DNA of 9,302 nucleotides from a virus (taxonomy: Duplodnaviria > Heunggongvirae > Uroviricota > Caudoviricetes): the IMG/VR virus record IMGVR_UViG_2537561977_000032. One strand, 5' to 3'. The notes under the pieces are model-generated. The model searched no databases and was not told the origin of the DNA. It was given only the letters and a program-made list of their open reading frames with translations. Positions 1,201-6,589 of the stretch are shown piece by piece. The translations under genes and the position numbers were made by a program. The stretch's first letter is position 1, and each line of letters starts with the position of its first letter.

Positions 1201-1227
1201 AGCCCGCAACATTGCGGGCTTTGTCTT
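1201..1227. terminator. GC-rich hairpin next to the methyltransferase stop; possible intrinsic terminator
   Basis: Stem AGCCCGC(1201-1207) / GCGGGCT(1214-1220) with loop AACATT, followed on the plus strand by TTGTCTT. On the minus strand it lies directly after the methyltransferase TAA (1226-1228) but the downstream tract is pyrimidine-rich rather than a clean U-run. Confidence 0.4.
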
Positions 1228-2017
1228 ATGGTTCGATCGCCGTTTTGAGCCGTTGTGTTGCTACATCAAAATAATGATCACTGGTTTCTATACCAATAAA
1301 TTTTCGCCCTGCTTTCAGTGCAGCCACACCCGTTGTCCCTGACCCCATAAAAGGATCAAGGACTGTTCCGCCACTATTCACAGTCCTGACCAGTTCCGCC
1401 ATTAGTTCTTCTGGTTTTCCGGTCGGGTGCATTTTCTTTGACGGGATAACCGGGAACGTCATGCAGCCGTCGAACGGTCCCGAAGGCGATTTATCTAAAT
1501 GGCCTTTGCTGCCCCAGACGATGTATTCGCACTGATGCCGGAAATACCCGGTATGTGGTGTTCGTGACCCCCTCCCCTTGTTCCACGCAATGATTCCGCG
1601 CCATGTAAAGCCACTGGCCTGAAACGCATCGGTTAAAGCTGGTAGTTGTCGCCAGTCAGTAAATACCAGGGCATAACCGCCCGGCCTGACTGCGCGGTGT
1701 GCCTGTGCCATCCATAATTGTGTCCAGTAAGCCCACGAACGGGCGTCCATGTTTTCACCCGCGAACCCATCAAAGCGGTGAAGGTTCTCGCCGTTCAGAT
1801 ATTTTGCATGGCTGCCCTGGTTGGTGCGTCCGGCCTTGTGTGTCGCACCCGAACTGTAAGGCGGGTCAGTGATTAAGGCATCAATGCTTTCTGGCTCAAT
1901 CAGCGGCAATATTTCCAGCGCATTCCCACGACAGAGCGTGGCATTGTCAGTCTGATAAACCTTAGTGTGTTCCGGTGTATGTGCTGGTTGGTGCTGGATT
2001 GCGATCCCCACGGTCAT
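1226..2017 (-). CDS. DNA amino-methyltransferase (beta-class N6-adenine or N4-cytosine), probably orphan
   Basis: 263 aa ORF with catalytic motif IV DPPY (ALITDPPYSS) near the N-terminus and SAM-binding motif I FxGxG (LDPFMGSGTTG) near the C-terminus, the beta-class order. ATG at 2017 is preceded by GAGGAG with only a 2 nt spacer; GTG at codon 3 is an alternative start. No restriction endonuclease partner is visible in the window. Confidence 0.85.
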   Translation of the reverse strand: MTVGIAIQHQPAHTPEHTKVYQTDNATLCRGNALEILPLIEPESIDALITDPPYSSGATHKAGRTNQGSHAKYLNGENLHRFDGFAGENMDARSWAYWTQLWMAQAHRAVRPGGYALVFTDWRQLPALTDAFQASGFTWRGIIAWNKGRGSRTPHTGYFRHQCEYIVWGSKGHLDKSPSGPFDGCMTFPVIPSKKMHPTGKPEELMAELVRTVNSGGTVLDPFMGSGTTGVAALKAGRKFIGIETSDHYFDVATQRLKTAIEP

Positions 2018-2159
2018 AACTCCTCATGTGTGTGGGGTGCTCGATGGCTCTCGTTATCTGGTTAAGTGTTTTGCAGCGCGGACATTTTATTTCAATGTAG
2101 TGAAATGAGGCGCGGGCAAGTAGTTTGTTGCAATTTTTGCATCGTACATTTTGCGTCAT
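1962..2159 (-). CDS. com: Com-like zinc-finger protein (phage Mu Com family, translational activator)
   Basis: 65 aa from ATG at 2157-2159 with SD AAGAGGT 6 nt upstream; the ORF track starts it three codons earlier at GTG 2168. Sequence MTQNVRCKNCNKLLARASFHYIEIKCPRCK closely parallels Mu Com as I recall it (..IRCKNCNKLLFKADSFDHIEIRCPRCK..), a CxxC..CxxC zinc finger. Its 3' end overlaps the methyltransferase start by 56 nt, the same geometry as Mu com-mom. Confidence 0.8.
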   Translation of the reverse strand: MTQNVRCKNCNKLLARASFHYIEIKCPRCKTLNQITRAIEHPTHMRSYDRGDRNPAPTSTYTGTH

Positions 2160-2194
2160 TTGCGGCACCTCTTGTGTGGTTACTGCTGCCGATA

Positions 2195-2246
2195 TGATAG
2201 CAAATCGATCGTTTTTATCGATCGGATTTATTGCATTGATCTATCA
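2195..2246 (-). promoter_or_regulatory. Imperfect dyad with three GATC sites upstream of com-methyltransferase; candidate Dam-methylation-sensitive operator/promoter
   Basis: ATGATAGCAAATCGATCG-TTTTT-ATCGATCGGATTTATTGCATTGATCTATCAT: outer arms ATGATAG/CTATCAT, two palindromic ATCGATCG copies flanking T5, and GATC at 2207-2210, 2220-2223 and 2238-2241. AT-rich, located 35-90 bp upstream of the com start on the minus strand. Confidence 0.45.
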
Positions 2247-2297
2247 TTCCTATTGCTTATGAATAGTGTCACCTTCATTTGTGAGGGCAACAAAAAG

Positions 2298-2333
2298 AAA
2301 ACCCGCAGTTTTTACACTGCGGGTTTGTTGTTC
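2298..2333. terminator. Bidirectional rho-independent terminator
   Basis: Perfect 8 bp stem CCCGCAGT(2302-2309) / ACTGCGGG(2316-2323), loop TTTTAC, flanked by an A-run upstream and TTTGTTGTTC downstream on the plus strand. On the minus strand the stem is followed by TTTTCTTTTTGTT, so it should terminate ogr-side transcription before the com promoter region. Confidence 0.7.
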
Positions 2334-2743
2334 ATGTCTGTGAGATAGGGTGCCGTTTCGACCAACCTTAGCAACCGATTGACGGGGGATTACTCCCCCG
2401 TCGCGGTTATCTTACTTATTACATAGTAAGAATGCCGCAATTTCCGTGCCAGCAAACCTGAATCGTAACTCGCACGGTGATGTGTGGAGGATCCAGATTA
2501 TCGCTACCGCAGTTATGCAAAGTAACAGGGTTTTTAACGGAATTTGCGTCATAACGCTTGTCTCCTGAGAGGAGAGGCGCTAACCTTCTACTTGCGAAGG
2601 TAAGAAGTGTTAGGGCCTCGGTTAAACAAAAATGTTTTCCGGGGCCTTTCCACATCTGGCCTTCGGGTATTCCCTCCGACCATCAGCCGAAAGGCACCCG
2701 CGCGTAATCTATCGCTTTTTTGTTACTCCGGCAATTCTGCCTG

Positions 2744-3004
2744 TTAATTCTGAGATAAAGGCAAACTCATCTGATTGTTTCCCCTGTGTGAAGCTGGCAG
2801 ATCATGCCACGGGATACCTTCTGATGAGTGAACGCCGGAGGCGTGTTTTGATGTGAATTTATGGAAAGCTTCCAGTGTTGAGAAGCATACGCCGCATTCC
2901 AGATTGTTACACTGGTAATACTTTTGCCGCACGGTGTTTGAATCATTTTCCGGACGACTGGTGCGGATACGGGCAGATGCGCCACAAAGCGGACAACGGA
3001 ACAT
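2744..3004 (-). CDS. ogr: Ogr/Delta-family zinc-finger late-gene transcription activator
   Basis: 86 aa; ATG at 3002-3004 with SD GGGAGG 5 nt upstream. N-terminus MFRCPLCGASARIRTSR...YYQCNNLECGVCF has the C-x2-C ... C-x4-C zinc-finger pattern and the MF[HR]CPLC start typical of P2 Ogr and its relatives. Lies 42 bp downstream of gpD on the same strand, as in P2. Longer than P2 Ogr (about 72 aa) with a divergent C-terminal tail. Confidence 0.8.
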   Translation of the reverse strand: MFRCPLCGASARIRTSRPENDSNTVRQKYYQCNNLECGVCFSTLEAFHKFTSKHASGVHSSEGIPWHDLPASHRGNNQMSLPLSQN

Positions 3005-3046: not shown

Positions 3047-4154
3047 TCACTCTGTTTCCGCTATCCATTCCGGGATTTTTGCCTCAAGCTCAAGCTGCGT
3101 GGTAAAGCCGCTGTTATCAATGGTGTGCCCGGCTTTTGCAATGATCCAGTCCTGATTATCAATCTCGCTTTTAAATCCTGTTACCGTGCCATGCATTTCG
3201 GGGTAGAGTTCTGCACGTCCACGCGCCAGCGTGATGGAGAATGATGCGGCTCCGCGTTGTAGTTGCTGCCACTTTGCCGCCGCTGCGCGTCTTGCTGCCT
3301 GCTCGTTCTGATAAGTCTTGCGTAACACAAACACATTGCCTTCCGCGCCTTCCATATAATCACCTTCACGGCTGCTGCTTTTCTCCTTTTTGGGTTTTGG
3401 CGGTTTACGGCGTTTCACGCTGACTTTTTCTTTTCCCGTAATTAAGATCAAGCCAGTAGGCGCGTACCCCCGTATACGCCTCGCGGTCAGCAATGCGGAA
3501 CTGATGGCGATCGCCGCTGCTGCGTGTAATGGCGAACGAGGGCAACGGCTGGCCCTGTGCGTTCACGCCACCACCTGGCATGATGAATAACAGATTGCCG
3601 CTTTTTACCGTGGTGATTGCGCCCAGCATTTCCGCCATGCGCGTAAGGAAGGACATGTCGCTTTCTTCGGTCTGGTCGGCGTGGTCGATTTCGATATCCA
3701 TCAGCATTTCGCTGATTTGCGGTTTCAGACCGTACCGGTGAGCGATGGCGGATACCACACGCTCAATGGTCACATCATGCCAGGACACCTCACGTTTAAC
3801 GTTAAATTCATCCCGAAAATCTGCGCTTCTGGCTGAAACAGTCAGCCTGTCCGGCGGTCCTTCGTGAGCGATTTCATCAACAATATAAGTGCCTTTTTCT
3901 GTCAGTGGTTCTCCTTTCCAGCCAATGAGAACCGTCAGGCGCGCGCCCCGTGGTGGTAGCTGCAACTGACCATCTGCATCATCCAGCGTGATGGTGAGCT
4001 GGTCCGCTTCAAATCCCCGGTTGTCGGTCAGTGACAGGCTCATCAGTCGCTCTGTCACGTCGGGCAGTGTTTCACCTTCCGCGAGAATATCAAAATCCGG
4101 CATTTTCACGGGGTCCGGGCCCTGACTGAGCAATTGCATGGTGGTGTCGGTCAT
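3047..4154 (-). pseudogene. D: gpD-like tail protein (phage late control gene D family), reading frame broken by a 1-nt shift in a homopolymer region
   Basis: Two overlapping minus-strand ORFs: N-part from ATG 4152-4154 (SD AGGGAGG upstream) to stop at 3405-3407, and C-part 3493-3047 in the adjacent frame. The C-part (GNVFVLRKTYQNEQAARRAAAAKWQQLQRG...TGFKSEIDNQDWIIAKAGHTIDNSGFTTQLELEAK) matches the conserved gpD C-terminal region from recall. Frames overlap at 3405-3493, where A/T runs (T5 at 3425-3429, T4 at 3431-3434) are the likely shift site. The track's upstream extension to 4286 (MIRQQ...) is not supported. Confidence 0.7.
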
Positions 4155-4311
4155 CTGTTCCCTCCCTGTGCGGCATGGTCGCATGTGCGTGCGGAGGGGG
4201 TTACTGCTTTTTGTTGTCGCCGTGGCGGGAGAACGGCGCAGGGGTGAGATTACGCGCGTGGTGGGTGATGATTGTTGCCGAATCATTTAACGGATACAAG
4301 GGGCTGAAGCT

Positions 4312-5496
4312 ATGAGTGAAACTCGTTTTCATGGTGCCCGTGTTACGGAAAGTACCAACCTGGTAACAGCGATTAATGATGTTGATTCCAGTGTTATCGG
4401 TATCGTGGCAACGGCGGATGATGCGGACGCGGAGCTGTTCCCGCTGAACAAGCCCACACTGCTGACCCGCGTCAATGACGTGCTGGGAAAATGCGGAACA
4501 ACGGGGACGCTTTATCGTGCGCTTAAGGCCATCGCAGACCAGGTGAGCACAAAGGTGATCGTCGTTCGCGTGGCTGAACACAAAGAAGAAGACGGAAAAA
4601 CGCAGGATCAACTGGTTATCGGTGGTTCTGAATCTGACGGCAGCTATACGGGGATGTATGCGCTGCTTGTTGCAGAGCAGGATGAAAGCATCGGATACCG
4701 TCCGCGTATTCTGGCCGCGCCGGAGCTGGACACGGAGGCGGTAACAAAATCCCTGTGCGTGATTGCAGGTAAACTGCGCGCGTTTGTGTATGCCTCATGT
4801 CACGGCTGTAACACGATGGCTGAGGCGATTACCTACCGCCAGAAATTCAACGAACGTGAGGTGATGCTCTTATGGCCGGACTTCATCGCCTGGAACCCGA
4901 AAAGTGGCAAAAACGAAACGTTCCCCGCGCCTGCCTATGCGTGCGGCCTTCGTGCGTACATTGACCATGAGCAGGGCTGGCACAAATCATTGTCCAACGT
5001 TCCGGTTAAAAATGTGCTGGGGATGTCGAGGCATGTGTTCTGGTCGTTGCAGGCCGAAGACAGCGATGCCAACAGCCTCAACAACAAAGAAATCACGACC
5101 ATTATTCGTCGTAACGGGTTCCGCTTCTGGGGCAACCGCACACCGGAAACGAACGCCTACATCTTTGAGGTGTATACCCGAACCGCACAGGTGCTGGCTG
5201 ATTCAATTGTGGAAGCGCAGTTTGAAACCATCGACAGTCCACTGACGCCTGCGAACGTGAAGGATGTTATCAGTGCCATCAGGGCAAAACTGGATTCACT
5301 GGTGACTGCCGGGAAACTGATTGGGGCGTCGTGCTGGTATGACGTGGTGGATAACGGCACCACGGATTTACGTCAGGGGCGCGTGCGTATTCGCTACAAA
5401 TATACGCCCGTTCCGCCACTGGAAGATATGGAGCTTTACCAGACGTTTACTGATGAATTCTTTGGTCCCGCATTTGCGGTGCTGGGAGGTGTCTGA
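4312..5496 (+). CDS. FI: Contractile tail sheath protein (P2 gpFI family)
   Basis: 394 aa, ATG 4312, stop TGA 5494-5496. Long collinear similarity to P2 FI as recalled (DADAE.FPLNKP, RPRILAAPELDT, KLRAF.Y, YRQ.F..RE.M..WPDF.AWN, QGWHK.LSNV, RRNGFRFWGNRT, YTRTAQV, Y.YTPVPPLE). Confidence 0.93.
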   Translation: MSETRFHGARVTESTNLVTAINDVDSSVIGIVATADDADAELFPLNKPTLLTRVNDVLGKCGTTGTLYRALKAIADQVSTKVIVVRVAEHKEEDGKTQDQLVIGGSESDGSYTGMYALLVAEQDESIGYRPRILAAPELDTEAVTKSLCVIAGKLRAFVYASCHGCNTMAEAITYRQKFNEREVMLLWPDFIAWNPKSGKNETFPAPAYACGLRAYIDHEQGWHKSLSNVPVKNVLGMSRHVFWSLQAEDSDANSLNNKEITTIIRRNGFRFWGNRTPETNAYIFEVYTRTAQVLADSIVEAQFETIDSPLTPANVKDVISAIRAKLDSLVTAGKLIGASCWYDVVDNGTTDLRQGRVRIRYKYTPVPPLEDMELYQTFTDEFFGPAFAVLGGV

Positions 5497-6007
5497 TGGC
5501 TGTACCAAAAAATCTTCGTTTTTTACGCTGTTTGTGGATGGTGAAAACGAAGTGGGTAAGGTGACGTCCGTCACTCTGCCTAAACTGACGCGCAAAACCG
5601 ACAGCTACCGGGGTGGTGGCATGATGGGGGCAGTAAGTATTGATCTCGGCCTGGACGACTCCGCGCTTGATGCGAGCTTTGTCATGGGGGGCGCAGTTCG
5701 TGAGTTGTTCCTGAAGTATGGCGGCACGATTGACGGTACGCTGCTGCGTTTTGCGGGTGAATACTACACCGACGCTGAAAGCGACCTGTATGAAGTCGAA
5801 ATGCGCGGACGTGTGACGGAAATTGATATGGGGGAAGCCAAACAGGGTGAGGCCACATCACACACTTACGCCATTAAAAACACCTACTACAAGCTGAGTG
5901 TTAACGATCGCCCGTTGTGGGAGATTGACCTGCTGAACTTCATTTACCGGAAGGACGGCAGGGACATTGTGCCCGATCGCATCCGTTCCGCGCTCGGGCT
6001 TGGCTGA
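5496..6007 (+). CDS. FII: Tail tube protein (P2 gpFII family); needs a -1 shift at 5519-5525 to be read full length
   Basis: ATG 5496-5498 overlaps the FI stop (TGATG) and has a perfect SD GGGAGG 6 nt upstream. Frame 0 gives MAVPKNLRF then stops after 22 codons; the -1 frame continues FTLFVDGENEVGKVTSVTLPKLTRK..SYRGGGM.GA...LGLDD to TGA 6005-6007. The joined product MAVPKNLRFFTLFVDG... fits the P2-type tube N-terminus (MA.P.KL.... LF.DG). The run at 5519-5524 has 6 T where 7 would keep one frame. Confidence 0.8.
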
Positions 6008-6061: not shown

Positions 6062-6370
6062 ATGAAAGAGACGAAAAACATCGATACCGAAAACACGGTA
6101 GTTACTGACACTGTGAAAGAAACCAGTGAGCGTGGCGTAAAACTTACCCAACCAATTGAGCGAGGCGACGAAAAAATCACGTATGTGGAGATCTCCGGGG
6201 CTATTGAGCAGGCTGGTTCTCTGCGAGATTTGTCGCTGTCTGATGTGCTGAATCTGAAAGCGGAATCCATGTTTACGCTGCTGTCACGCGTGACATCACC
6301 GCGACTGGATGAAGTGACGATCAAAAAATGGCATCCCGTGACTTTATTCAGTTATGCGTGGTTGCCGTAA
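6062..6370 (+). CDS. E: Tail assembly chaperone E (P2 gpE family)
   Basis: 102 aa; ATG 6062 with SD AAAGGAG 7 nt upstream; position directly after FII and before the tape-measure gene. Acidic N-terminus and a ..RGDE.IT.V.. motif are consistent with gpE. Stop TAA 6368-6370. Confidence 0.75.
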   Translation: MKETKNIDTENTVVTDTVKETSERGVKLTQPIERGDEKITYVEISGAIEQAGSLRDLSLSDVLNLKAESMFTLLSRVTSPRLDEVTIKKWHPVTLFSYAWLP

Positions 6371-6589
6371 ATTTTTGAGCGGTGCGGACTCTGGCGGGAA
6401 GAACGAACAGGCGCCGGAAGCCTGATCACGGTTGTGTGCTTTGAGCACATAGAAGACTTTGTGGCAGATATTGCCGTTATTTTTAACTGGTCGCCCGCCG
6501 AAATCTTCATGATGACGCCCGGCGAAGTGGTTAGCTGGCGTGAGCGGGCGGCACTTCGCAGCGGGAATGCAGACAATGAAGACTCTTGA
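6371..6589 (+). other. E': E'-like extension ORF overlapping the start of T, but in the same frame as E (not -1)
   Basis: 73 sense codons straight after the E TAA, protein-like (IFERCGLWREERTGAGSLITVVCFEHIEDFVADIAVIFNWSPAEIFMMTPGEVVSWRERAALRSGNADNEDS), ending TGA 6587-6589 inside T. The sequence AAATTTTTG at 6369-6377 resembles the P2 E/E' slippery site TTTTTTG but sits in the +1 frame relative to E. Confidence 0.55.

Follow-up and report, generated by a model that had tools for sequence, protein, structure and literature searches.

The tail tube protein gpFII of phage P2 belongs to the Pfam family PF04985, and its gene lies in a tail cluster in which the genes for sheath, tube, E/E+E', tape measure and U follow one another, with the start of the tube gene overlapping the stop of the sheath gene. 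The DNA examined here, a window of 9,302 nucleotides recorded in IMG/VR as IMGVR_UViG_2537561977_000032, resembles P2 in the family match, in this gene order and in the overlap. It differs from P2 in that gpD and ogr lie immediately upstream of the sheath gene FI on the minus strand and diverge from it, whereas P2 has both genes downstream, after gpU, and also in that its tube gene (FII) is one base short, the latter difference being seen only in the assembly of E. coli LT-68. As a result of the missing base, the 5' part of FII reads T_TTT_TTA, and the same heptamer (U_UUU_UUA), in the same register, is the known shifty site of HIV-1 gag-pol. However, in HIV-1 the heptamer is followed shortly downstream by a stem-loop and it forms part of a conserved two-frame layout, and FII has neither of these. 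A -1 slippery heptamer (T_TTT_TTG) is also present within the same gene cluster in the E/E+E' region of P2 and of the relatives of the window, but the FII heptamer, in contrast to it, is found only in the LT-68 assembly and is not conserved. The remaining point of comparison is provided by the homopolymer errors of draft genomes (pyrosequencing, Ion Torrent and early long-read), to which the LT-68 discrepancies are similar in consisting only of one-base under-calls in A/T runs of 5-7, several per region and with no substitutions, which give rise to apparent frameshifts in otherwise perfect genes. They are unlike such errors in their clustering, as 3 kb of prophage contains all of them although 19 kb was examined. 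Based on the results described below, the split of FII most likely results from a sequencing error and would thus have no biological reality.

The window is identical in sequence to the draft contig ADUP01000056.1 of E. coli LT-68 (GCA_000188815.2), and it includes the host gene flk and, inserted beside it, one end of a P2-like prophage. The features of this region are listed in Table 1.

Table 1. Features of the 9,302-nucleotide window (position 1 is its first letter).
Feature	Position	Strand	Remarks
flk (host gene)	1-996	minus	
N6/N4 DNA methyltransferase, part of a Mu com/mom-like pair	1226-2017	minus	so annotated in relatives
Com zinc-ribbon ORF, overlapping the methyltransferase ORF	1962-2168	minus	so annotated in relatives
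hok/gef-type (Hok/Gef) toxin ORF	2412-2552	minus	so annotated in relatives
ogr	2744-3004	minus	
gpD (late control D / baseplate hub), split into two ORFs	3047-4286	minus	
FI tail sheath gene	4312-5496	+	intact, 394 aa; stop overlaps the FII start
FII tail tube gene, 5' fragment in the LT-68 assembly	5496-5564	+	
T6 run in FII	5519-5524	+	T7 (nearest) or C+T6 in relatives
FII remainder, -1 frame	5519-6007	+	PF04985 match; stop at 6005-6007
gpE-like tail chaperone gene, broken; E' segment beside it	6062-6426	+	121 aa in relatives
Tape measure gene	3' of chaperone	+	runs off the window end

Only gpD, FII and the gpE-like gene are broken; the rest of the prophage genes in this region are intact. 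The Mu com/mom-like pair and the Hok/Gef-type toxin ORF (1226-2552, minus strand) are cargo of the prophage end that adjoins flk, and in some relatives (L003 and L004) extra cargo, viz. a gene for a DUF2971 protein, IS elements, and PIN-domain or ParA genes, is carried in the gap between ogr and gpD. The last base of the window (9302) is also the last base of ADUP01000056.1, so that the contig breaks inside the tape measure gene, and this suggests that the LT-68 genome contains either an internal repeat or another P2-like element related to this one. The tube region is found in up to three copies per complete E. coli genome.

As read in the LT-68 assembly, FII directly follows the sheath gene, within a contractile-tail cluster of sheath, tube, chaperone and tape measure, and its ATG at 5496, which overlaps the sheath stop (TGATG), is preceded by an SD sequence (GGGAGG, 5484-5489). 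The 0 frame from this ATG reads ATG GCT GTA CCA AAA AAT CTT CGT TTT TTA CGC, and its translation, MAVPKNLRFLRCLWMVKTKWVR*, has 22 codons, of which nine (MAVPKNLRF) are authentic and are followed by 13 out-of-frame codons and the stop. The tube protein resumes in the -1 frame, where the segment 5519-6004 gives a match to PF04985, the family of phage tail tube protein FII, with 154.8 bits (gathering cut-off 22.4) and E 2.3e-45, which spans positions 7-165 of the 165 in the profile. As the start of the profile (its first about six positions) is left unmatched by this segment, the corresponding residues are therefore encoded in the upstream 0 frame. In the intact homologue the protein begins MAVPKNLRFFTLFVDG..., and the authentic N-terminus is MAVPKNLRFFTLF. 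All of the descriptive parts of the original prediction are in agreement with these results, viz. the SD-backed ATG at 5496, which opens MAVPKNLRF and reaches a stop after 22 codons, the resumption of a tube protein at the T6 run in the -1 frame, and the T_TTT_TTA sequence at 5519-5525 standing in slippery register with the ATG, as the reading of the frames confirmed. A comparison with homologues had also been proposed, in the expectation of an ...LRFFTLF... junction, and this junction is present in the intact homologue.

In all of the relatives examined, the gene is uninterrupted and has an additional base at this site (T7 or C+T6). Of 5,426 complete E. coli genomes, 1,394 contain the tube region, and each of the matches listed at full query coverage is one base longer than the query. 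The best match (FDAARGOS_943) has CGT TTT TTT ACG at the junction, i.e. T7, and an intact protein of 170 aa, whereas an O157:H7 copy reads CGC TTT TTT ACG. When the loci encoding an identical 394-aa sheath were considered, T7 and a 170-aa tube gene were present in all of them (10/10). A pattern scan of IMG/VR, in which zero or one extra base was permitted at the junction, returned 120 contigs, and C+T6 was found in 115 of these, T7 in five and T6 alone in none. An intact 170-codon ORF from the ATG is present in 112 of these contigs, and in the other eight the ORF leaves the fetched stretch, except for one ORF of 165 codons. The T6-only junction had no exact match in metagenome contigs or in the contigs of species-representative genomes. 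Of the 462 phage records with a match, 461 extend over 80% or more of the 170-aa protein, with nearly all of the listed matches starting at residue 1. Furthermore, when one T is inserted into FII of the window, the resulting protein is identical to P0016, which occurs on 68 contigs, and therefore nothing else in the FII gene has decayed. The interrupted arrangement is thus private to the LT-68 assembly, and the T_TTT_TTA heptamer is only a consequence of the missing base. The preference expressed in the original prediction for the change T7 to T6 over recoding is upheld by the T7 run and the intact 170-aa gene of the nearest relatives, and by the fact that the addition of one T yields the protein on 68 contigs.

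However, the occurrence of two frames in the LT-68 sequence could also be understood differently if the tube protein started in the second frame, at GTG 5489 or GTG 5534, in which case the ORF from ATG 5496 would be irrelevant. The GenBank annotation of the FII remainder (EFZ56068.1, 172 aa) does begin at GTG 5489, and in some assemblies the gene callers have chosen the GTG equivalent to 5534, giving products of 157 aa. However, GTG 5489 overlaps the SD sequence and does not have an SD of its own, and the first residues of its product (MSDGCTKKSS) have no counterpart in the homologues, whereas MAVPKNLRF has one. The 172-aa product itself was matched exactly on only one contig, ADUP01000056.1, in an exact-sequence look-up against about 15 billion proteins. 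The calls of 157 aa trace to N gaps, altered sheath stop or tube start codons, or run-length noise, and not to a different gene structure, and the 112 IMG/VR copies noted above have their 170-codon ORF from the ATG. Nine candidate starts were looked up in all, and the only products in existence were that from GTG 5489, which is unique to LT-68, and a GTG product of 157 aa on a contig of Shigella sonnei that contains N gaps, both of them gene-calling artefacts. A downstream start in the second frame, which the original prediction had itself named as a possible refutation, is not needed, as the homologues start at the ATG equivalent to 5496, and it is extremely unlikely. From the sequence comparisons, this ATG is predicted to be the start of the tube gene in this lineage.

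The junction between the sheath and tube genes is altered in some other strains (L018, L020 and L022), where, at positions equivalent to 5490-5498, either the sheath stop TGA is changed (to CGA, TGG or TTA) or the tube ATG has become GTG. In these cases the sheath ORF extends over the tube start to 417 aa, and the tube gene is called from the downstream GTG as a protein of 157 aa, although the tube coding sequence itself is uninterrupted.

The other possibility to be considered is that the tube protein is made from both frames by programmed -1 frameshifting on U_UUU_UUA at codons 9-10. The heptamer at 5519-5525 is in the correct X_XXY_YYZ register and a stop in the 0 frame is found downstream of it, as would be the case for a recoding site. 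However, the two-frame arrangement is seen in 0/120 of the IMG/VR contigs and 0/10 of the identical-sheath loci, where the homologues have instead the extra base and a continuous ORF, and the phage homologues align in a single piece from residue 1. A search for a stimulator downstream of the heptamer was negative: the 95 nt at 5526-5620 fold at -29.9 kcal/mol, which is no better than for shuffled sequences (z -0.80). A single local hairpin is present, and it starts about 28 nt past the heptamer and not 5-9 nt. A well-placed SD-like element upstream was likewise not found, the nearest being the ribosome binding site of the gene itself, which is about 30 nt away, where about 10 nt is expected. 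An unstimulated shift of low efficiency could not supply a tube protein of which hundreds of copies are required, and the 0-frame product, a nonsense peptide of 22 aa, provides no logic for a dual product. In addition, four sibling deletions in neighbouring genes, described below, show that the cause is not confined to this site. On the comparison with relatives, the recoding reading is effectively refuted, and we attach almost no probability to it.

In contrast to FII, the gpE-like gene does have a recoding site in the relatives. Near the end of their 121-aa gpE-like gene, about 850 nt downstream of the FII site, the sequence AA T_TTT_TTG is present in register, and a -1 shift at this heptamer joins the chaperone to a PF06528 GpE segment; it is a genuine programmed -1 frameshift site of the P2 E/E+E' type. 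In the LT-68 assembly, a T is missing from this conserved heptamer (T6 to T5, 6372-6376), and another one-base deletion is present in the same gene at 6323-6328 (A7 to A6), with the result that the gene of 121 aa is cut to an ORF of 102 aa. The gpD gene is also affected, since two adjacent runs at 3425-3435 have each lost one base (on the + strand, T6 to T5 and T5 to T4). The single 369-aa gene of the relatives is represented in the window by two overlapping ORFs (3047-3493 and 3405-4286), for which GenBank has individual protein entries (123 and 249 aa).

The significance of these deletions becomes clear from an independent assembly (GCA_018229165.1, designated L027), which was found by means of its identical flk protein and which has the same prophage. 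The alignment of LT-68 with L027 extends over 16,482 bp (10 kb of host genes and 6.5 kb of prophage) and contains 0 mismatches and exactly five one-base gaps. All five of these gaps are deletions in LT-68 and they are in A/T runs (T6 to T5, T5 to T4, T7 to T6, A7 to A6 and T6 to T5), two of them in gpD, one in FII and two in the gpE-like gene; they all lie between 3425 and 6372, i.e. within 3 kb. Thus, the differences of LT-68 from this near-identical assembly are confined to homopolymer run length. The closest relative that covers the whole window (L011, 99.8%) gives a similar result, since over about 8.3 kb of prophage the same five deletions are accompanied by only two substitutions, and at the other four deletion sites the run lengths of a divergent relative (L003) also agree with those of the closest relatives. 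The runs in this part of the genome have also caused difficulties elsewhere: in a noisy assembly (L017, UFZL01), where the sheath gene is in three pieces, other run-length discrepancies (A3 for A4 and T5 for T6) are found in the same 5' stretch, and these runs are therefore error-prone in practice.

Based on these observations, the T6 run of FII is very probably a homopolymer under-call in the draft consensus, one of five such under-calls in the tail genes of this prophage. If so, the FII gene of LT-68 would be an ordinary single ORF with T7 (CGT TTT TTT ACG), whose run would have been called one base short in the draft assembly, leading to the break in frame, and the T_TTT_TTA heptamer would be an accidental product of the missing base, with no recoding involved. 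An intact gene is present in all of the relatives and the pattern of five deletions is seen directly in the alignments; that these result from base calling or assembly rather than from mutation is what we infer from them. The 2010 draft batch including LT-68 was possibly pyrosequenced; a literature search found neither a sequencing platform nor a description for LT-68 or ADUP01.

However, if the T6 run is real, then the LT-68 prophage is defective, with D, FII and E having been inactivated by very recent slippage deletions and FII being a pseudogene. Homopolymer runs are natural hotspots of one-base deletions, and related prophages in other strains show decay, for example a gpD that is truncated or disrupted by an IS element and a frameshifted tape measure gene. 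Further, the five deletions are all in prophage genes and none is in the 10 kb of flanking host genes, which is what relaxed selection would also leave. For A/T runs of at least 6, the proportion shortened is 0/7 in host DNA (10 kb) and 4/8 in the prophage (Fisher one-sided about 0.05), and when runs of 5 are also counted the contrast in deletions has a one-sided Fisher value of about 0.013. By these counts, the deletions are not evenly spread over the homopolymers of host and prophage. Under the error model, this clustering in the prophage alone would need a locally poor stretch or one of low coverage, which is plausible near a contig end induced by a repeat. The unevenness between host and prophage slightly favours a real origin filtered by selection, but it is outweighed by the lack of any substitution. 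According to published work on mutation accumulation in E. coli, substitutions outnumber one-base indels by about ten to one, and in mismatch-repair-deficient E. coli many transitions are found alongside the homopolymer indels. As substitutions are about ten-fold commoner than indels, five independent indels within 3 kb and no substitution over 16.5 kb are therefore unlike natural divergence, and the ratio of the two is far from that of either wild-type or mismatch-repair-deficient E. coli. It is because of these five A/T-run deletions in 3 kb, together with the 0 substitutions, that an error is favoured over a real mutation. Other signs of decay in proportion are also missing (0 substitutions against L027, and two against L011 in 8.3 kb); no further lesions are present, as the repaired tube protein is the same as a widespread intact one, and the remaining prophage genes of the window are undamaged; and the T6 allele was found in no other assembly or metagenome searched. 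A real inactivating deletion is thus unlikely. The original prediction had left it undecided whether the change from T7 to T6 was a homopolymer error or a real mutation; of these two, it is the error that is favoured by the four sibling deletions and the absence of substitutions relative to L027, and the mutational version is the less likely.

A variant of the mutational reading, in which the T6 run is real and unstimulated -1 slippage on U_UUU_UUA leaks a little near-native tube protein (MAVPKNLRFL/F-TLFVDG...) and provides a partial rescue, is very improbable. However, even in this case, it would be incorrect to interpret the slippage as an evolved recoding signal, as it would constitute accidental suppression of a frameshift mutation, and the deletion itself, if real, would make FII an ordinary fresh prophage pseudogene. 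Neither the error reading nor the real-deletion reading touches an open biological question. A different origin for T6 was also considered, viz. a mixed consensus of a T7 copy and a C+T6 paralogue, and this might account for the FII site, but it fails at the other four, where the run lengths of L003 are those of the closest relatives; such an origin is also not required.

The under-call reading, which we prefer, calls for caution, as it indicates that a perfect-looking slippery heptamer can result from a one-base homopolymer miscall, and that draft assemblies such as that of LT-68 carry clusters of these miscalls. In this case the same stretch of one contig falsely splits three tail genes, and GenBank lists the fragments as separate proteins, of which EFZ56068.1 has an invented N-terminus.

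The same prophage is found in differing host backgrounds. Between LT-68 and L011, flk shows 13 substitutions whereas the 8.3 kb of prophage shows two, and L027 has both the flk allele and the prophage in common with LT-68.
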